48,525 nt of DNA from Candidatus Micrarchaeota archaeon (GCA_026396385.1 JAPLWV010000012.1:1-48525), one strand, 5' to 3'. Positions 3,663 through 34,361 are shown, numbered from the stretch's first letter. Notes: generated by a model from the letters alone, not told the origin. Numbers and translations: made by a program.

Positions 3663-4208
3663 TCATCTCCTCAGCCACTTCGCCAATTTCTCAAGCGCAC
3701 GCCTCCTGTGCGAGCACATCATTTTCGTTTTATGGTCCTCGGCAAACGTTTTCCTTGAACCTTCAGGGATGAATATTGGGTCGTAGCCGAAGCCTTTCTC
3801 TTTCGAAATTTTATTCGAGATGTAACCCTTCACTTCTCCTCTCAGAACCGCCTCCTCCTTCCCATCCCACGCGGCAATTGACGAGACGAAGCAAGCATCT
3901 CTCACTTCCTTCCCTCTCATCAACTCCAGGATGCCCTCATTTCCAATCTTCTTGAAAACCCAGGAGGAGAACGTCCCTGGAAATCCATTCAGGGCTTTGA
4001 TGAACAGACCGGAATCCTCAATGAAGAAAGGTTCGTTCACCTCGCTGCGCAGTTGCCTGAGACAGTCCAAGGCAACATTCTCGCAGTTCTCAGCCCTTAT
4101 TTCTTCGCATTCAACATCTTTGCGCCCTATAATTACGTTATATTCTTTTAAAATCCTTTCGGCTTCCCTGAATTTGTGTTTGCTTCCGGTTATGAAAAAC
4201 AATTTCAT
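3663..4208 (-). CDS. rdgB: RdgB/HAM1 family non-canonical purine NTP pyrophosphatase
   Basis: EDSGLFI, GFPG, GFGYDPIF and SHRRRAL motifs. Confidence 0.95.
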   Translation of the reverse strand: MKLFFITGSKHKFREAERILKEYNVIIGRKDVECEEIRAENCENVALDCLRQLRSEVNEPFFIEDSGLFIKALNGFPGTFSSWVFKKIGNEGILELMRGKEVRDACFVSSIAAWDGKEEAVLRGEVKGYISNKISKEKGFGYDPIFIPEGSRKTFAEDHKTKMMCSHRRRALEKLAKWLRR

Positions 4209-4280
4209 GAAATCCCTATTGTAATATTAAATTCCTGAACGACTTATTTATATTGTGGGGAAGGTATAAAAATAAACATC

Positions 4281-6650
4281 TCATTTCTTTAGCTCAACTT
4301 TGAATTCTCCTTTTGAGATTTCTATTTTCTTAATCCTTCCTGCTGCTTCTATCTCCTCCTTAACTGAATCTAGCTGTTCTGGCTTCTCGACCTTTATTTT
4401 TGCTGATGAAAGTTCTGTATTAAGCGAGAGTTTCTGGCTCATCTTGAATTTCCGTATCTCACTCAGAACTTTGTTGAGGAGCATGGCATTCTGCTCGCTC
4501 TCCTCATCAATCATCTTTTTGTCCTCCTTGGGCCAGCTTTCTGCATGTATGCTTTCCTCCTTTGAGAAGAGCTGCTGATAGAGCTCATCAATTGTATAAG
4601 CAGCAAAGGGGGCTGTGAGCTTGAGCGAGGTCAGCAACACTGTTTTCAATGTAGACTGAGCCGCCCTTCTGCTTTCCGTTCCGTATTTGTCAGGCTGGTA
4701 GAGCCTGTGCTTCACTTCCTCCAGATAATAATCGCAGAACTCGTGCCAGAAGAACTCTGTGAAGGTGGTTATTGCGGTATAGAAATCGTAATTCTCGAAT
4801 GCATTTGTGCATGTCTCCACAACCTTGTTCAGCCTGCTTAGAATCCACCTGTCAGTCACTCTGAGCTTCTGCTTGCCCCCATCAGATTCCTTGAGGGAAA
4901 ATTCAATAAACTTTGAAGCGTTCCACAGTTTATTCAAGAAAGAGTGCGCGTAGTTCACATCCTTCCAGTAGAATATGTTGTCCTTTCCAGTGCTCCCAGA
5001 AAGAGCAGCCCACATCCTGAGGGAATCAACTGAGGATTTCTTTATCACATCCTTTGCTTCCACATAATTGCCCAGGCTCTTGCTCATCTTCTTTCCATCA
5101 GAGCCGCACACCATCCCGTTGATAAGCACATCCTTGAAGCACGGCTTGCCGGTAAGCATGAGGCAGCGGTATATGGTATAGAAAGCCCAGGTGCGGATTA
5201 TGTCAGTGCCCTGCGGCCTCAGTGATGATGGATACAGCGCAGTGAATTTCTTCTCATCATCGGGCCAGCCCCCTATTACGAGCGGGGTTATGCTGGAGTC
5301 CACCCACCCATCGCATATGCTTGTCTCCCCAATGAGCTTTCCCTCGCATTTGGGGCAGTTCTTTACAGGAGGCTTGTCCCTGGCAGGGTCTACAGGAAGA
5401 TTGGGGTATCCTGGAGCTATGACACAGTCGCATTTCTCGCAGTACCAGAAGGGAATGGGAATGCCAAAAATCCTCTGCCTTGAGAAGCACCAGTCCCACT
5501 CCAAACCGCGGCACCAGTCAATCAGAAGTTGGATTGTATGAGAGGGCACCCAGCGCATCTCATTCGCAGCCTTCATTATTTCCTCCTCATGTCCCTTGAG
5601 CTTCATAAACCACTGGGCGGAATTCAGGAATTCGACCGGTCTCTTGCACCTGTCGTGTATTTTCACCATCTGCTTTAGTTTCTCCTTCTTTGTGATGAGC
5701 TTGAGCAGGTTGAGCTCCTCAAGTATTTTCTCCCTTGCCAACTCTGCTTTCAAGCCTGTGAACTTGCCTGCATTGAGTAGTTTTCCTCTCCCATCCATTG
5801 CCTCAATGACAGGAAGGTTGTGTCTGTACGACCAGGTCACATCCTGTTTGTCACCGAATGTGCACACCATTACTATGCCAGTCCCGAAACTGGGGTCCAC
5901 CTCAGAGTCAGGGATGATTTTAACCTCCCTGTTGAACAGCGGAACGACAGCGGTTTTTCCATGCAGCTGCTTGTAGCGCCCATCCTCCGGGTTGACCAGC
6001 ACTGCAACGCACGCATGCAGCAGCTCGGGTCTTGTGGTTGCAATGACGAGGGGCTTTCCCTCGCATGAGAAGGATATGTAGTTGAGGGCAGTCTCCCTCT
6101 CTATTTCATCTGTTTCGGCTTTGGCTATTGCGCTTCCGCAGCAGGTGCACCACAGCACCGGATGCTTGGAACGATAGACAAGACCTTTTTCAAACATCTT
6201 TAGTATGGAGTACTGCACTTTCCGGTGGTACTCCTTGTCGATCGTATAATACTCCTGCCTCCAGTCTATGGAGAAGCCCATCTCCTTCATCTGCGGCTTC
6301 ATTGTGCTTATGACATCCCTCGTCCACTCCAAACATTTTTCTTTGAACTGCTCCCTCGGAAGCCTCCCGTATTTCTTCTCCACTTTTACCTCTGTCGGGA
6401 AACCATGGCAATCCCAACCCTGAGGGAAGAGGACGTTGTAGCCGCACATCCTCTTGTACCTTGCCACAAAATCCATGTAACACCAGTTCAGAGTATTTCC
6501 AATGTGGAACTCCCCTGTTGGAAAAGGCGGGGGCGTGTCTATGATGAAAACCTTTCTCTTGCTCTTCTCATCGAACTCATGAAGCTTAAGCTCCTCCCAC
6601 TTCTTTCGCATCTTCTCCTCGAACTTATGCGGAGCATATTCATCTAGCAT
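4281..6650 (-). CDS. valS: Valine--tRNA ligase
   Basis: IDTPPP, HIGN, GWDCHG, ATTRPE, FGTG.VMVCTFGD, SRQR, PQGTDIIRTW and KMSKS motifs. Confidence 0.96.
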   Translation of the reverse strand: MLDEYAPHKFEEKMRKKWEELKLHEFDEKSKRKVFIIDTPPPFPTGEFHIGNTLNWCYMDFVARYKRMCGYNVLFPQGWDCHGFPTEVKVEKKYGRLPREQFKEKCLEWTRDVISTMKPQMKEMGFSIDWRQEYYTIDKEYHRKVQYSILKMFEKGLVYRSKHPVLWCTCCGSAIAKAETDEIERETALNYISFSCEGKPLVIATTRPELLHACVAVLVNPEDGRYKQLHGKTAVVPLFNREVKIIPDSEVDPSFGTGIVMVCTFGDKQDVTWSYRHNLPVIEAMDGRGKLLNAGKFTGLKAELAREKILEELNLLKLITKKEKLKQMVKIHDRCKRPVEFLNSAQWFMKLKGHEEEIMKAANEMRWVPSHTIQLLIDWCRGLEWDWCFSRQRIFGIPIPFWYCEKCDCVIAPGYPNLPVDPARDKPPVKNCPKCEGKLIGETSICDGWVDSSITPLVIGGWPDDEKKFTALYPSSLRPQGTDIIRTWAFYTIYRCLMLTGKPCFKDVLINGMVCGSDGKKMSKSLGNYVEAKDVIKKSSVDSLRMWAALSGSTGKDNIFYWKDVNYAHSFLNKLWNASKFIEFSLKESDGGKQKLRVTDRWILSRLNKVVETCTNAFENYDFYTAITTFTEFFWHEFCDYYLEEVKHRLYQPDKYGTESRRAAQSTLKTVLLTSLKLTAPFAAYTIDELYQQLFSKEESIHAESWPKEDKKMIDEESEQNAMLLNKVLSEIRKFKMSQKLSLNTELSSAKIKVEKPEQLDSVKEEIEAAGRIKKIEISKGEFKVELKK

Positions 6651-10168: not shown

Positions 10169-10240
10169 GGCCGCGGTAGTCTAATGGCATGACGGCGGGC
10201 TGTGGACCCGCAGGAGGGGGTCCGATTCTCCCCCGCGGCC
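10169..10240 (+). tRNA. tRNA-His(GTG) with genomically encoded G-1
   Basis: GCCGCGG/CCGCGGC acceptor stem; GCGGG-CT GTG GA-CCCGC anticodon arm; C73 discriminator; G at -1. Confidence 0.93.
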
Positions 10241-10287
10241 CTTATTCTACTTAAAAATAGGTAAGTTAGTATAATAAAAAAAACTTT

Positions 10288-16185: not shown

Positions 16186-17229
16186 ATGAAAGGTGAAATG
16201 AAGGCTATTATGAAGAAGAAGCCAGGTCTTGGAGCGGAGCTGGTCACTGTTCCCATACCAAAAATAGGGCCGAGGGATATACTTGTGAAGGTTAAGGCAA
16301 CCTCCATCTGCGGAACCGATTCGCACATATACGAATGGAATGCGTGGGCGCAGAGGAGGATAAAGCCGCCAAGGATAATGGGGCATGAGTTCGGGGGAGA
16401 GGTTGTAGAGGCAGGAAAGGATGTCACTTTTGTTTCAATTGGTGATCATGTCTCTGCTGAGACGCATATAGTGTGCAATAAGTGCTTCCAGTGCAGGACT
16501 GGTCAGGCGCATGTATGCCAGAATGTCAAGATACTTGGAGTGGACACGGACGGTTGCTTCGCGGAATACGTCGCAATCCCGGAGGAGAATGCATGGGTGA
16601 ACGACAAGAAGCTTCCTCCGGAAATAGCAGCTATACAGGAGCCTTTTGGGAATGCTGTGCACACTGTCTTTGCGGAGGGCGTTGCCGGCAAGACTGTCGC
16701 GGTTTTCGGGCTTGGTCCGATTGGGATATGCGCTGTTGCCATATGCAAGGCAGCAGGAGCGGCACATGTGTTTGCAATTGGGAGGAAGAATGATTACAGA
16801 CTGAACCTTGCAAAGAAGATGGGTGCGGACACTGTGATAAAATCGAACGAGCAGGATGTTGTGAAGCTGGTGAAGGAGGCAACCGGCGGCTCTGGGGTGG
16901 ATGTGTCCCTGGAGATGGCAGGCTCCCAGGAGTCGATAAGCCATTGCTTCAAGGTGCTGAAGTTCGGTGGGAGGGTTTCGCTGCTTGGTCTGCCGCCGGA
17001 TAAGATAACGCTGGACTGGGCTGATGACATAGTTTTCAAGGCAGCGAGGATTTATGGAATAGCAGGAAGGAGGATGTATGGCACGTGGTACACCACTGCT
17101 GGCTTGCTTAAATCGGGCAGGGTGAATGTTGAGCCGATAATTACCCACAAGTTCAAGCTTGAGGAATTTGAGAAAGGAATGCAGCTTATGCATGAAGGAA
17201 AATGCGGGAAGGTAGTTTTATACCCATAG
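16186..17229 (+). CDS. tdh: L-threonine 3-dehydrogenase
   Basis: SICGTD, GHE, SAETHIVC..C..C, EPFGNAVHT, GLGPIG, YGIAGR; adjacent to kbl. Confidence 0.94.
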   Translation: MKGEMKAIMKKKPGLGAELVTVPIPKIGPRDILVKVKATSICGTDSHIYEWNAWAQRRIKPPRIMGHEFGGEVVEAGKDVTFVSIGDHVSAETHIVCNKCFQCRTGQAHVCQNVKILGVDTDGCFAEYVAIPEENAWVNDKKLPPEIAAIQEPFGNAVHTVFAEGVAGKTVAVFGLGPIGICAVAICKAAGAAHVFAIGRKNDYRLNLAKKMGADTVIKSNEQDVVKLVKEATGGSGVDVSLEMAGSQESISHCFKVLKFGGRVSLLGLPPDKITLDWADDIVFKAARIYGIAGRRMYGTWYTTAGLLKSGRVNVEPIITHKFKLEEFEKGMQLMHEGKCGKVVLYP

Positions 17230-17242
17230 CGGAGGTGTGTTT

Positions 17243-18418
17243 ATGGGAAGCAGACTTGGTTTCATAACGACGGAAATTGAGGGTATGAAGAGCAAGGGTC
17301 TTTTCAAGGTTCCACCCATACTAGGAGGCCCACAGGGAGCAAGGGCGGTTGTGAACGGCAAGGAGGTTATTAACCTCTCATCGAACAGCTACCTTCAGCT
17401 CACAACCAACAAAAAGATGAAGAAGGCGGCAATCGAGGCAATAAGGAAATACGGAGTTGGGACTGGAGCTGTGAGGCAGATAATTGGAACAATGGGCATA
17501 CATGAGGAGCTTGAGAAGAAAGTTGCGCAGTTCAAGGGGGCAGAAGCAGTGCTCGTGTTCTCATCAGGAGTTGCAGCCAACAGCGGAACTATACCTACTC
17601 TGGTTGCAGAGGGTGATCTGATAATAAGCGATGAGCTGAACCACGGAAGCATAATTGACGGATGCAGGCTCACCAAGGCGGAGAGAAAAATCTACCCGCA
17701 CTTGGATATGGAGGGGCTTGAGAAAGTGCTTAAGGAGAGCAAGCACAGGAGGAAGCTCATCATCACTGATGGAGTGTTCAGCATGGACGGGGATATTGCT
17801 CCGATGGACAGGATAGTGGAGCTAGCGGAGAAATATGACGCAATGACATACGTGGATGACGCCCATGGCGAGGGAGTTCTTGGAAAGAATGGCAGAGGGA
17901 TAGTGGACCACTTCAACCTGCATGGGAGGGTTGATGTTGAGATGGGAACGTTCTCCAAGGCATTCGGGTGCATGGGAGGCTATATTGCCGGAACAAACGA
18001 TTTGAGGAGCTACTTGATACAGAGGGCCAGGTCATTCCTTTTCAGCACGTCACACCCGCCAGCCACCGTGGCTGCAATAAGCGCTGCGATAGATGTTGTG
18101 CTGGAACAGCCGCAGCTTTTTGACAAGCTCTGGAACAACACCAAGTACTTCAGGAAGAAGCTGCAGAAGCTCGGGTTCAACACGGGCAACAGCCAGACGC
18201 CGATAATACCCGTCATAACAGGCGAGAGCTCCTTGGCGCAGCAGCTCTCTGCGAAGCTCTTTGAGAAGGGAGTGTATGTGAACCCGATACTGTACCCAAT
18301 GGTTGCAATGGACAAGGCAAGGGTGAGGAACATAGTGACCGCAGGGCACAAGAGGAAGGACTTGGATTATGCGATAGGGGCATTCGAGGAAGTTGGGAAG
18401 GAGCTCAAACTGATATAG
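17243..18418 (+). CDS. kbl: Glycine C-acetyltransferase (2-amino-3-ketobutyrate CoA ligase)
   Basis: SDELNHGSIIDG, TDGVFSMDGD, VDDAHG, GTFSKAFG; follows tdh. Confidence 0.9.
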   Translation: MGSRLGFITTEIEGMKSKGLFKVPPILGGPQGARAVVNGKEVINLSSNSYLQLTTNKKMKKAAIEAIRKYGVGTGAVRQIIGTMGIHEELEKKVAQFKGAEAVLVFSSGVAANSGTIPTLVAEGDLIISDELNHGSIIDGCRLTKAERKIYPHLDMEGLEKVLKESKHRRKLIITDGVFSMDGDIAPMDRIVELAEKYDAMTYVDDAHGEGVLGKNGRGIVDHFNLHGRVDVEMGTFSKAFGCMGGYIAGTNDLRSYLIQRARSFLFSTSHPPATVAAISAAIDVVLEQPQLFDKLWNNTKYFRKKLQKLGFNTGNSQTPIIPVITGESSLAQQLSAKLFEKGVYVNPILYPMVAMDKARVRNIVTAGHKRKDLDYAIGAFEEVGKELKLI

Positions 18419-27432: not shown

Positions 27433-27519
27433 GCGGGGGTGTCAGAGCCTGGTCTAATGAGCAGGGCTTAGGACCCTGTGCGCTTAGGCGCTTCGTGGGT
27501 TCAAATCCCTCCCCCCGCA
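27433..27519 (+). tRNA. tRNA-Leu(TAG)
   Basis: GCGGGGG/CCCCCGC acceptor; CAGGG-CT TAG GA-CCCTG; long variable arm; TTCAAAT T-loop. Confidence 0.95.
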
Positions 27520-28044: not shown

Positions 28045-28130
28045 TTATATGTTGGAATACTGTACAGCTCTGCTACCCCCACCTGCGGAATATATAAAAA
28101 GAGTGAGCGCTGAAGGCAATCCTTCCATTC

Positions 28131-28289
28131 TTAAACTGCCTTCTTCGCTCTGATATCCTTTCTCTTAGGCCTCAGATGCGTGTAGAAGCATTTCCTGCAT
28201 CTCTCGGCTCCTCTAGGGTTCCTTGCCTTGCATTTCCTGCATATCCATATCTTGGATATCTCTGCATCAGCGAGTGGAAACTTCCCCAT
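28131..28289 (-). CDS. rpl40e: 50S ribosomal protein L40e (absent from the ORF track, 52 aa)
   Basis: Manual translation MGKFPLADAEISKIWICRKCKARNPRGAERCRKCFYTHLRPKRKDIRAKKAV; GGTGA RBS. Confidence 0.95.
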   Translation of the reverse strand: MGKFPLADAEISKIWICRKCKARNPRGAERCRKCFYTHLRPKRKDIRAKKAV

Positions 28290-28327
28290 AAATATCACCT
28301 GGAGTTAAATATTTTGAGCATGCAAGT

Positions 28328-28529
28328 GTGACATGCCCCTACCTTTTGACAGGTTTGGCTTCCTGCTTCAAAGAACACCCATCGGGTTCTCGGCCAGGCT
28401 TGCATTCCCGTATGCCCTGCGGTATTCCGCCTCTGCACTCATCCCAGACGGCTTTACACAAACTGGGAAACATGCAGATGGTTCGTGTTGCGACTCAATC
28501 ACGCCTTATGGGTTGGCGGTGTTGTGATT
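28328..28529 (-). mobile_element. Orphan IS200/IS605 right end / TnpB omegaRNA-like scaffold (non-autonomous element or stand-alone guide RNA)
   Basis: Minus strand reads AATACCGCAGGGCATACGGGAA-TGCAA-GCCTG...GAAGCAGGAAGCC-hairpin-ATGTCAC, matching recalled tnpB right-end architecture with terminal TCAC. Two more hairpins lie 5' of it. No tnpA/tnpB in the window. Confidence 0.7.
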
Positions 28530-28635
28530 ATGAAAAAGAGCATATATAAACATTTGGAAGGGGTAACTTTCCAGGTGAAGAATGTGGGATTCCGCATAGA
28601 GTTAAATTCGTATTTATTCATAATTTTATCTCTGA

Positions 28636-28707
28636 GCCCCGGTAGCTCAGTGGTAGAGCGAACGCCTTGTAAGCGTTAGGTCGCGAGTTCAATCCTCGCT
28701 CGGGGCT
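28636..28707 (+). tRNA. tRNA-Thr(TGT)
   Basis: GCCCCGG/TCGGGGC acceptor; AACGC-CT TGT AA-GCGTT; GTTCAATC. Confidence 0.96.
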
Positions 28708-28758
28708 TTCAAAAACCTTGAAAAGTATTTAATAATTGCCAGTTAAAAGGGAAAAACA

Positions 28759-30546
28759 ATGTGCGGAATTCTCGGCATAATAACTCTTAAGCCAAGAGCT
28801 ATAGGAAGGGACCTAGTTGCTGGAGGCAAGAGGCTCAGCTACAGGGGATATGATTCAGTAGGATGCGCAGTTATGTCTGACGGAAAAATAGACCTTAGAA
28901 AGGATGTCGGCAAAGTAGATGAGGTGAGCAAGAAGCTGAACTTCTCAGAGATGCACGGTGACAGAGGGGTAATACAACTGAGATGGGCAACCTTTGGAGC
29001 TCCTTCCAAAAATAATGCTCAGCCTCATCTTGACTGCGATGGGGATATGGTTGGCGCCCATAACGGCAATATAGTGAACACACCTCAGCTCAGGGAGCAG
29101 TTCATGAGGGAAGGCCACACTGTAAGGAGCACAAATGACGGGGAGCTATGCATACACGCGGTTGAGAAATACTATGATGAAGGATACAACATGGTTGATA
29201 GCATAAGAAAGGCTTACGGCGATTTGAGGGGTGACTATGCATTCATCATATTCAACAACAAGGAGAAGAAGCTCTACGCGGTGAAGAAGGGCTCTGGTTT
29301 GGTTGTCGGAATCGGAAAGGATGAAATGTACTGTTCATCAGACTTGCCTTCGCTTCTCCCTCTGACAAAGAAGATTATATTCCTAAGCGATGGTGAGATT
29401 GTTTCATTATCTCCAAAAGAGGCCAAAGTCTTCGGAGTTAGCGATGGAAAGGAGATAAAGAAGAAGATTATTGAGTACAGGGAGAATGCTGAACATGCCA
29501 AAAAAGGCGGGTACGAGCACTTCATGCTGAAGGAGATAAATGAACAGCCAGTTGCAGCTGAAGATTTGATTGAGCTGCTTGACGAGTCGGAATATGCTGA
29601 TAAATTCCTCGATGTGATAAAGAGTTCTGACAAGGTTTTCTTCGTTGGGTGCGGCTCTAGTTATCATGCCTGCCTGCTCGGCTCCTACTACTTTGGGAAT
29701 ATAGCAAAGAAAGTTGTGATTCCAGTTGTTGCACCGCAATTCATCAGCGAGTATGGACATACAGTTGATGACAAAACCTGTGTTGTGCTTGTGAGCCAGA
29801 GTGGTGAAACGAAAGACGTGATAAACGCGATGAACTATGCAAAAGAGAAGACTGATAAGATACTTGGAGTGATAAATGTGATTGGCTCAACTCTGATGAA
29901 CTCCAGCAAAGTATATCTGCCTCTTGCTGCGGGCTATGAAGTCAGCGTTCCTGCCACGAAGACGTTTATCAACCAGTGCGTGATGTTCCTTTACCTTGCT
30001 AAGAAGATGGGGGGGAAATCGTGCGATGATATGAAGAAGCTTCCACCTCTAATTAAGGATACTATAGAATCAACAACGGATGATTGCAAGAGACTGGCAG
30101 GATACCTGAAAAAATGGGATGATATGTACTGCTTGGGTTATGGATCAACATACGGGATTGCAAGGGAGGCCGCCCTGAAGATAAAGGAGATAACATACTC
30201 GCACTGCGAGGGGATGTATAGTTCTGAGTTTAAGCATGGACCACTCTCGGCGGTAAGGAGAGGTTACCCAGTAATGTTCATCAGCTCTCTGAAAGATGTG
30301 GATGTGATAGTTAGCCATATGAATGAGGTTATATGCCGAGGTGGGAGGGCTATATCCATTGCGGAGAAAAGCGAGGGCATGGTGAGAAATGCGAGTGAAC
30401 TGATTGAGCTGCCGCATTCAACTGATTACTTCTCACCTGTGCTTGCCGCAATTCCAGCACAGCTCATAGCATACTACTTGAGTGTTAGCAGGGGAATCAA
30501 CCCGGACTTCCCAAGGAACCTGAGCAAGACAATTACGGTGGATTAA
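28759..30546 (+). CDS. glmS: Glutamine--fructose-6-phosphate aminotransferase (isomerizing)
   Basis: MCGI, RGYDS, RWAT, HNG, MLKEI.EQP, SQSGET, KHGP, PRNLSKTITVD. Confidence 0.93.
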   Translation: MCGILGIITLKPRAIGRDLVAGGKRLSYRGYDSVGCAVMSDGKIDLRKDVGKVDEVSKKLNFSEMHGDRGVIQLRWATFGAPSKNNAQPHLDCDGDMVGAHNGNIVNTPQLREQFMREGHTVRSTNDGELCIHAVEKYYDEGYNMVDSIRKAYGDLRGDYAFIIFNNKEKKLYAVKKGSGLVVGIGKDEMYCSSDLPSLLPLTKKIIFLSDGEIVSLSPKEAKVFGVSDGKEIKKKIIEYRENAEHAKKGGYEHFMLKEINEQPVAAEDLIELLDESEYADKFLDVIKSSDKVFFVGCGSSYHACLLGSYYFGNIAKKVVIPVVAPQFISEYGHTVDDKTCVVLVSQSGETKDVINAMNYAKEKTDKILGVINVIGSTLMNSSKVYLPLAAGYEVSVPATKTFINQCVMFLYLAKKMGGKSCDDMKKLPPLIKDTIESTTDDCKRLAGYLKKWDDMYCLGYGSTYGIAREAALKIKEITYSHCEGMYSSEFKHGPLSAVRRGYPVMFISSLKDVDVIVSHMNEVICRGGRAISIAEKSEGMVRNASELIELPHSTDYFSPVLAAIPAQLIAYYLSVSRGINPDFPRNLSKTITVD

Positions 30547-34181: not shown

Positions 34182-34254
34182 GGGGGGATGTGCTAGTCTG
34201 GTATGCTTCGGGGTTTGGGACCCCGCGACCCGAGTTCAAATCTCGGTCCCCCCA
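34182..34254 (+). tRNA. tRNA-Pro(TGG)
   Basis: GGGGGGA/TCCCCCC acceptor; CGGGG-TT TGG GA-CCCCG; CCGAG-TTCAAAT-CTCGG. Confidence 0.94.
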
Positions 34255-34361
34255 CTGGGATTTGTAACTAAAAGTAGGGCACATCATTGTTTACGCGGGA
34301 CAACCCTAACGATAGCTTACCTTCTTAAATATTTAATCTTCTAAATATCTTGCTGAACAGT

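Follow-up and report, generated by a model that had tools for sequence, protein, structure and literature searches.

A protein-less element of the IS200/IS605 type, 274 bp long, lies on the minus strand at 28601-28328 of a 48,525-nucleotide stretch of DNA from a Candidatus Micrarchaeota archaeon (GCA_026396385.1, JAPLWV010000012.1:1-48525; hereafter the window, meaning the whole stretch), with boundaries given by empty sites. The element is, with good confidence, a derivative of tnpB-only elements that carries a stand-alone omegaRNA-like gene for a TnpB encoded elsewhere. Its boundaries are precise and its insertion is polymorphic, its right end and promoter are homologous to those of tnpB elements, its RNA structure is under selection and intact TnpB is present in the source genome. 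Elements with no protein gene and nothing but a guide RNA for TnpB are already known, and the basic assignment is a confirmation; what is new is the non-tnpB 5' domain of the RNA, the setting in the Micrarchaeota and recent mobility without a detectable transposase.

The boundaries were established by comparison with related genomes, in which a preliminary description of the window, made from the sequence alone, had recommended looking for an empty site. In five of five congeners 28602 is joined directly to 28327 (site ...GAATTTAA|ACTTGC...), and because these flanks abut, the element comprises exactly 28601-28328, inserted 3' of TTTAA without a target-site duplication. The same joint, skipping 274 nucleotides (nt), was found in metagenome contigs from two of four runs (X2 and X4), in which the flanks of the empty allele (a 12.8-kb contig in X4 and one contig in X2) are ~97-98% identical to the window. 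Contigs of runs X1 and X3, which may contain the window's source sample, span both element junctions with 0 differences. Both alleles of the insertion, filled and empty, are present among public metagenome contigs, and the insertion at 28601-28328 is found in the source lineage only, between a tRNA-Thr gene and an L40e-like gene. The preliminary description had ended the element at 28328 and read 28327-28308 as its guide, and both positions hold: 28328 is the exact last base, as given by the empty sites of all five congeners and of the contigs of the two runs, and the flank reconstitutes the empty site with TTTAA. It was also right to call the element non-autonomous, but its size of ~200 bp was too small, as the 5' side extends to 28601, and TTCAT at 28534-28530, its candidate for the target- or transposon-adjacent motif (TAM), is internal to the element, the actual TAM being TTTAA at 28606-28602. 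The element's protein-coding capacity is limited to overlapping open reading frames (ORFs) of only 40-73 amino acids (aa), none of the six with a Pfam match at E<=1, and there is no convincing ORF in the ~220 nt between the TATA-like TTTATATA and the small ORF that starts downstream (ATG 28289, minus strand).

The insertion site and the parts of the element are as follows.

28328-28601, minus strand: whole non-autonomous element, 274 bp, from presence or absence against five congeners and from contig joints
28602-28606, minus strand: TAM or target motif TTTAA, directly 5' of the element, from empty sites and the X2 and X4 joints
28576-28601, minus strand: left-end remnant, from comparison with the regions upstream of five tnpB genes and with other copies
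28543-28575, minus strand: promoter block CCTGGAAAGTTACCCC ... TATA box TTTATATA (28550-28543), homologous to the tnpB promoter
28427-28519, minus strand: 5' RNA module of ~95 nt, non-tnpB, from covariation and a profile search
28519-28515/28431-28427, minus strand: closing helix of the module, followed by a small hairpin
28478-28472/28438-28432, minus strand: long hairpin of the module with an inner stem, covarying
28508-28513, minus strand: 5' strand of a pseudoknot, ACCCAT, complementary to 28382-28377
28377-28382, minus strand: 3' strand of the pseudoknot, ATGGGT, within the penultimate hairpin (loop and 3' side)
28328-28422, minus strand: omegaRNA core of ~95 nt, homologous to tnpB 3' ends by BLAST and covariance model
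28422-28408, minus strand: GGGCA-loop hairpin of the core
28398-28395/28365-28362, minus strand: helix of the core
28391-28386/28376-28371, minus strand: penultimate hairpin of the core, followed by GAAGCAGGAAGCC
28359-28335, minus strand: terminal hairpin of the core, containing ACCT/AGGT
28334-28328, minus strand: element end ATGTCAC
28308-28327, minus strand: predicted guide of 16-20 nt (host flank), which with TTTAA restores the empty site

The 3' half of the scaffold is shared with the ends of tnpB genes, and the homology to tnpB right ends that the preliminary description had put forward is borne out by both BLAST and covariance-model matches. The core is 81-82% identical over 44-48 nt to the ends downstream of tnpB (BLAST), and the two have in common the GGGCA hairpin, a CCTG/CAGG helix, GAAGCAGGAAGCC and GCATGTCAC; the previously listed GAAGCAGGAAGCC, ACCT/AGGT hairpin and ATGTCAC end are all present. 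Right ends of type A, with the penultimate hairpin GTTGC..GCAAC, close tnpB genes and a few short derivatives, while those of type B, with GAGAAC..GTTCT, have six members in the source genome, including the candidate, and never stand beside tnpB. A covariance model was built from the five in-genome type B copies, and it matches 25 of 43 tnpB loci, drawn from named Micrarchaeota and Aenigmatarchaeota records, at 17.6-38.4 bits with length-compressed hits (106-253 nt), the 5' module being skipped in the two tnpB-linked alignments inspected. Among 28 tnpB-linked sequences, covarying helices are confined to a ~125-nt core (RNAalifold) and comprise the GGGCA hairpin, CCTGC/GCAGG and the penultimate hairpin, the same three as in the 3' half of type B; in this tnpB-linked type A both-sided changes occur at 14 of 23 pairs.

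The promoter and left end are also those of a tnpB element. The TATA-like TTTATATA, previously placed at 28550-28543 on the minus strand, is present there, and the same promoter block precedes the tnpB ATG in C6, C34, C54, C24 and C40 as well as the other type B copies. Archaeal transcription starts ~25 nt after the TATA box, and the predicted start of the element's RNA lies near 28522, a few bases ahead of the first helix. In C6, C34 and C54 (loci L013, L011 and L015) 26 nt separate the end of the tnpB TATA box from the ATG, and the tnpB mRNAs therefore probably have little or no leader; in these three the ATG is directly preceded by a short hairpin, GACG TAAATAA CGTC. The left-end remnant is homologous to only one half, the first, of the hairpin region at the left end of tnpB elements; this copy has lost the other half. 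The hairpin of full elements (ATCCCAC...GTGGGAT) is thus half-deleted here and in the C49 copy, while other copies have it or truncate it differently; the right-end subterminal hairpin is present in the element and variable among copies.

The source genome (G000; 97% complete, 1.015 Mb) holds four further near-full copies at 78-87% identity, five with the candidate, and three partial matches to the element's last 44-76 nt, one of them directly downstream of a TnpB zinc-ribbon match. A motif scan for right ends of the form GAAGCAGGAAGCC - hairpin - GCATGTCAC returned 13, to which the covariance model added those of C40 and C12. In every copy the likeness to the others ends precisely at TCAC, and what follows is different each time, so that the search for copies with different 3' flanks, proposed in the preliminary description, found only such copies. 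Within the genome family (G000-G009), the covariance model identified 13 full-length type B copies in four of the ten genomes (G000, 5; G001, 3; G002, 1; G004, 4) and type A ends only in G003 and G005; these copies are 61-94% identical to the candidate, and BLAST found no type B copy in 55 genomes outside the genus. Both the five near-full copies in the source genome and the 13 in the family greatly exceed what chance would give. Two other copies are also precise insertions: C49, of 279 bp, has empty sites in G002, G004 and G001 (ACATTAA|TAAATATA), and C9 has one in G005 (GTTTTAA|AAATAA), the TAM and right end of C9 being mutated in the source genome. Judged by insertion sites, the TAM of other copies is TTTAA or ATTAA, and left-end homology places further copies after TTTAA. 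The TAM of ISDra2 is TTGAT; the motif here, judged by insertion sites, differs from it.

Metagenomes extend this picture, as all seven loci with the module are full-length type B elements that have a tnpB-type promoter and, within the inspected flanks, no tnpB; four of their sites are orthologous to known copies and two are new sites after TTTAA. The module pattern had 0 matches in viral contigs. The closest relative of the candidate (93.6%) is the metagenome copy L140, at the C35-orthologous site of a related population, and C35 itself resembles the candidate, C48, less (84.8%) than L140 does. Copies also have a mosaic look, C24a being like C35 in its 5' two-thirds and like C49 in its terminal hairpin, and the pattern among C24a, C35, C49 and L140 suggests recombination or conversion between copies. 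Shorter variants occur too. C25:3112-3267 (minus strand) is a short type B variant that is alike in its last ~76 nt (89%; 66.7 bits to the model), with a shorter and different 5' part behind another TATA-like box. Two orphan type A cassettes were seen, C53:863-996 (minus strand), where a different TATA-like box of its own immediately precedes the GGGCA hairpin, and C18:25972-26106 (minus strand), with the left-end hairpin fused straight to the core and adjoining a tRNA gene.

Realigned to the covariance model, the 13 full-length copies keep 96.9% of paired cells, against 42-49% with partners slid, and show both-sided changes at 22 of 43 pairs. The covariation score is 0.437 against at most 0.111 slid and 0.165 shuffled (0 of 500 reach 0.437), where the slid controls are the fairer comparison because the alignment leans to the model and the relatedness of the copies inflates the shuffle controls. 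All three module helices covary, with changes on both sides in 3/5 (helix 1), 6/7 (helix 3) and 4/5 pairs (helix 4), and so does the GGGCA-loop hairpin of the core (5/5). The long hairpin at 28478-28432, which had been noticed in the preliminary description, is therefore real, with both-sided changes at six of its seven outer pairs across the 13 copies; MAFFT with RNAalifold on 11 copies had lost it through a misplaced gap, and realignment to the covariance model recovered it. A second hairpin of that description, at 28529-28497, does appear in the single-sequence fold of this copy but is not conserved, is absent from the consensus and probably lies partly upstream of the transcription start. 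The 5' and 3' halves are connected by a pseudoknot (28513-28508/28382-28377) that is kept in 13 of 13 copies in three sequence variants, ACCCAT/ATGGGT in ten, ACCCGT/GCGGGT in one and ACCTG(T)/(G)CAGGT in two. A pseudoknot is also present in the ISDra2 omegaRNA. Substitutions among the copies track RNA pairing, and the RNA structure of the element is under selection.

This conservation bears on whether the element could be a dead relic, i.e. a neutrally decaying deletion derivative without RNA function. The truncated left-end hairpin, the mutated TAM and right end of C9 and the failure to find a transposase would all be expected of such a relic. Against this, copies that are only 61-94% identical have kept 96.9% of their pairs, 22 of 43 with compensation, and the insertion is polymorphic among populations whose flanks are ~97-98% identical. 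Further contrary evidence comes from a pair of copies in two species, G002_C1 and G004_C8a, which have a common 3' flank ~1.4-1.5 kb from the L40e locus: between them six pairs are compensated and one is broken, which argues for selection on the RNA at a fixed site. A dead relic is accordingly considered highly improbable.

What distinguishes type B from the tnpB-linked RNA is its 5' module. Searched with an nhmmer profile of the module, the genome yields the five type B copies and no others (next best E = 3.7), and the 43 tnpB loci yield none (best hit E = 0.11, on the opposite strand); blastn with 7-nt words gave no match to indicate the module's origin. The coding part of tnpB that precedes the type A core shows no covarying structure by RNAalifold, which is blind to pseudoknots. 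As the profile finds no module in tnpB loci and there is no covarying counterpart upstream of the core, the module is an addition and not retained tnpB sequence. This agrees with the earlier remark that no tnpB remnant precedes the scaffold, the place being taken by ~100 nt of structured non-tnpB sequence.

The size of the element and its place beside tRNA and ribosomal-protein-like genes in an archaeon could also suit a housekeeping RNA, such as a minimal RNase P RNA, a signal recognition particle (SRP) RNA or a snoRNA-like species, but the element is multi-copy and absent from the same site in five congeners, and we give this identity next to no weight. RNase P RNA and SRP RNA, which the preliminary description had named as better hits that would overturn its assignment, are ruled out, since both were located on other contigs of the genome (93.8 and 97.1 bits, respectively). 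At gathering thresholds, Rfam 15 returned only four tRNAs from the whole window. At E<=10, the interval 28100-28760 gave two overlaps with the element that fall far short of the respective cut-offs: one to c-di-GMP-I-GGC over 22 nt (13 bits, E 3.9) and one to snoR101 (14.8 bits, E 2.7), which runs past the right end into flanking sequence and the ORF. The lack of an Rfam match says little, because Rfam may hold no model for this omegaRNA class.

A TnpB able to use the RNA would have to be encoded elsewhere, and three uninterrupted tnpB genes (C6, C34 and C54) are present in the source genome. Their proteins score 287-303 bits against NCBIfam guided_TnpB (cut-off 100). In C6, the only protein searched against structures, residues 2-362 align to ISDra2 TnpB structures (E = 1e-41) and the RuvC motifs are in place (GIDLG, ALEKL and DRDLNAARNI). 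Of the genes that the preliminary description had wished to see sought, tnpB was thus found, with three intact genes and RuvC motifs in place for C6, whereas tnpA was found in none of ten genomes. The tnpB genes in C24 (near 16976-18100, minus strand) and C40 (near 3800-4981, plus strand) have an in-frame stop in the N-terminal part and complete right ends, and are probably pseudogenes; C51:537-731 is a 138-aa fragment of a different TnpB family without this right-end type.

If the element works as proposed, the retained tnpB promoter would transcribe a ~195-nt scaffold from near 28522, followed by the host flank (28327 onward) as guide. The 3' half of the scaffold would correspond to the omegaRNA core found at resident tnpB 3' ends, while the 5' half would form a family-specific domain that closes on itself and reaches the penultimate hairpin's loop through the pseudoknot. 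A nuclease from one of the three intact tnpB genes may then associate in trans with the shared core and cleave the allele that lacks the insertion (TTTAA + ACTTGCATGC...); in line with the homing model of Meers et al., such cleavage could help the element to be kept or copied anew. According to those authors, palindrome-associated transposable elements (PATEs) are a frequent source of omegaRNAs that TnpB uses in trans (Meers et al. 2023, bioRxiv 10.1101/2023.03.14.532601). The two alternatives between which the preliminary description had left the choice, a non-autonomous element and a stand-alone trans-acting guide RNA, are on this account both true at once.

The guide itself points to the insertion site. 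The empty site of G005 matches 19 of the 20 guide bases at 28308-28327, and this guide has no second match in the genome at <=1 mismatch over 16 nt. The guides of six type B copies likewise have no second target at <=1 mismatch, and their 2-mismatch matches are without the TTAA motif; since the six have no other genomic target, they are plain flanks and not retargeted regulators. This bears on the idea of a domesticated guide RNA that would direct a nuclease-dead, TldR-like TnpB regulator to another locus, for which the element's own promoter, conserved scaffold and lack of an adjacent protein gene would be suitable. That idea is very hard to sustain, as the resident TnpB proteins keep their RuvC motifs, no second match exists for the six guides and the guide is simply the flank of a recent insertion. 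The TldR system itself (PMC10705468) resembles the element in having a guide RNA gene for a TnpB-family protein outside a simple transposon context, but its proteins are nuclease-dead and its guides are aimed at conserved host promoters, unlike the intact motifs and insertion-flank guide found here.

Several observations weigh against the assignment of the element to a guide RNA for a resident TnpB. Its single-sequence fold is not above chance (z = -1.58; 15 of 200 shuffles fold as well), and the evidence for RNA structure is for this reason comparative. A type B end on a tnpB gene was not found among the 43 loci, the ten family genomes or the seven metagenome loci, and as the type B penultimate hairpin and 5' domain differ from the tnpB-linked form, the fit to a resident TnpB can only be presumed. 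The Y1 transposase PF01797 was found in none of the ten family genomes, with the control positive in six of 14 known genomes, although the family genomes are metagenome-assembled genomes (89-100% complete) in which absences are not proof. The serine resolvase PF00239 was not found in the source genome (0/1). Lastly, the insertion is recent although the left-end hairpin of this copy is half missing. With neither a Y1 nor a serine transposase found and the left-end hairpin half-deleted, the movement of this copy is a puzzle.

The same puzzle is posed by haloarchaeal PATEs, for which strain-specific insertions are described even without an intact TnpA (PMC3119063). The ten genomes without detected PF01797 contain numerous tnpB elements and derivatives of these, with polymorphism between close relatives. 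One tentative proposal, which we consider rather unlikely as a whole, is that type B is a self-sustaining lineage of guide-RNA-only TnpB parasites with their own 5' domain pseudoknotted to the core, which still move although no Y1 or serine transposase is detectable, favour TTTAA sites that are TATA-like and supply a promoter as a replacement. If this were true, the 5' domain might let a free-standing transcript load or become stable without being carved from a tnpB mRNA, and mobilisation might come from TnpB itself, from a host or symbiont factor yet to be named, or from a transposase on an unsampled virus. Recent polymorphism without a found transposase touches the old question of how tnpB-only (IS1341-type) elements move.

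The insertion may also have consequences for the gene next to it. The small zinc-ribbon L40e-like gene that follows can be set out together with the neighbour on the other side:

28131-28289, minus strand: small zinc-ribbon L40e-like gene, an ORF on the same strand as the element, with its ATG 38 nt after the element
28635-28708, opposite strand to the element: tRNA-Thr gene

The L40e-like ORF weakly matches Pfam Ribosomal_L40e, at 18.6 bits (cut-off 23), and is conserved in the five congeners. In the uninterrupted site, TTTAA at 28602-28606 is probably part of a TATA-like TTTAAA, and the two divergent neighbours, which are ~70 bp apart when the element is absent, may both have their promoters in that interval. 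Read-through from the element into the L40e-like gene, at this site alone, is put at roughly even odds.

It is therefore conceivable that the element is a mobile promoter or leader, which hit the TATA-like box of the L40e-like gene and now drives the gene from its own promoter, the RNA structure serving transcript stability or processing and not TnpB. The empty site GAATTTAA|AC places TTTAAA 38-43 nt before the ATG, which would fit archaeal TATA-to-start geometry, and the short leader that would follow carries GGTGAT. Copies C49 and C9 likewise interrupt AT-rich, TATA-like sequence, with 35 and 48 nt to the start codons; the genes downstream of the three empty sites, all on the same strand at 35-48 nt to the start, are the L40e-like gene, purS and a 316-aa ORF. 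Across the source genome, a same-strand ATG ORF begins 31-48 nt beyond the right end in eight cases out of 15, while the figure for 1745 TTTAA sites is 12.4%; six of the eight are supported genes, five over their Pfam cut-off (PurS, L15e, GatD, formyltransferase and OMP decarboxylase) and the L40e-like gene sub-threshold, and one of the eight is dubious. However, the 31-48 nt window was chosen post hoc and the excess was not replicated in other genomes (3/25 and 5/25 against a null of ~10-12%), and the enrichment in a looser 10-75 nt window (14/25 and 11/25 against 20.5%), likewise post hoc and counted for ORFs of >=100 aa with four loci duplicated between the two sets of 25, could reflect intergenic survival alone. 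Several type B copies are without a downstream gene, and a promoter or leader function leaves the conserved tnpB-type core, up to the exact right end, unexplained. Such a function is compatible with a guide RNA for TnpB and does not exclude it; as an explanation in its own right it is judged unlikely, and the evidence for promoter targeting by type B elements is suggestive only. The TAM does resemble an archaeal TATA box, and at three sites the element lies between a TATA-like motif and a start codon and supplies its own promoter, which at split TATA-like sites is a possible route to tolerance in 1-Mb genomes.

Among known systems, the PATEs of Geobacillus stearothermophilus described by Meers et al. 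(2023) resemble the element in several respects. Both have no protein gene and share their ends with tnpB elements of the same genome, both have an omegaRNA scaffold that abuts the right end, with the flank as guide and TnpB in trans, and both are inserted beside the TAM without duplication. In contrast, the element described here has a Micrarchaeota host, keeps the tnpB promoter and carries a ~95-nt covarying 5' domain, pseudoknotted to the core, that has no tnpB-linked counterpart; G. stearothermophilus has a candidate TnpA, whereas none was found in the genome family examined here.

The definition of PATEs comes from work on Haloquadratum (Dyall-Smith et al. 2011, PMC3119063). A PATE-derived RNA, VNG_R0052, is expressed in Halobacterium, according to a report that also covers sense overlapping transcripts (sotRNAs; Gomes-Filho et al. 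2015, PMC4615843). Like the element, haloarchaeal PATEs are archaeal non-coding IS1341/tnpB derivatives with the left end fused to the right-end region, but they are described mostly as terminus fusions, some of only 52 bp, unlike the added structured domain seen here, and for the sotRNAs no classical BRE-TATA promoter (BRE, B recognition element) is reported, in contrast to the clear tnpB-type TATA promoter of the element. No sequence match and no Rfam (HgcC) match was found between the element and haloarchaeal PATE RNAs. The ISDra2 TnpB-omegaRNA complex (PDB 8bf8, 8ex9, 8exa and 8h1j) shares with the element a multi-helix scaffold that runs to the transposon end and is followed by the guide, but the ISDra2 RNA overlaps the tnpB 3' end, whereas here the RNA stands alone and its 5' half is non-tnpB.

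A non-tnpB 5' domain on a PATE omegaRNA and TATA-like TAM targeting were not found described in the literature searched, in which no search was aimed at the 5' domain and supplements were outside the scope. An added ~95-nt domain that docks on the core through a pseudoknot suggests needs of a free-standing omegaRNA that is not processed from a tnpB mRNA, and it bears on the engineering of compact TnpB guides. IS200/IS605 elements are reported in >65% of Micrarchaeota genomes (PMC13343696).

The surroundings of the element are those of an ordinary housekeeping region, with thyX, glmS and pdxS-like genes among the neighbours. The left end of the element is only ~30 nt from the start of the tRNA-Thr gene, and the AT-rich stretch between them (28606-28635) probably holds the tRNA-Thr promoter. 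Further tRNA genes in the window are those for His (10170-10241), Leu (27433-27519) and Pro (34182-34255).

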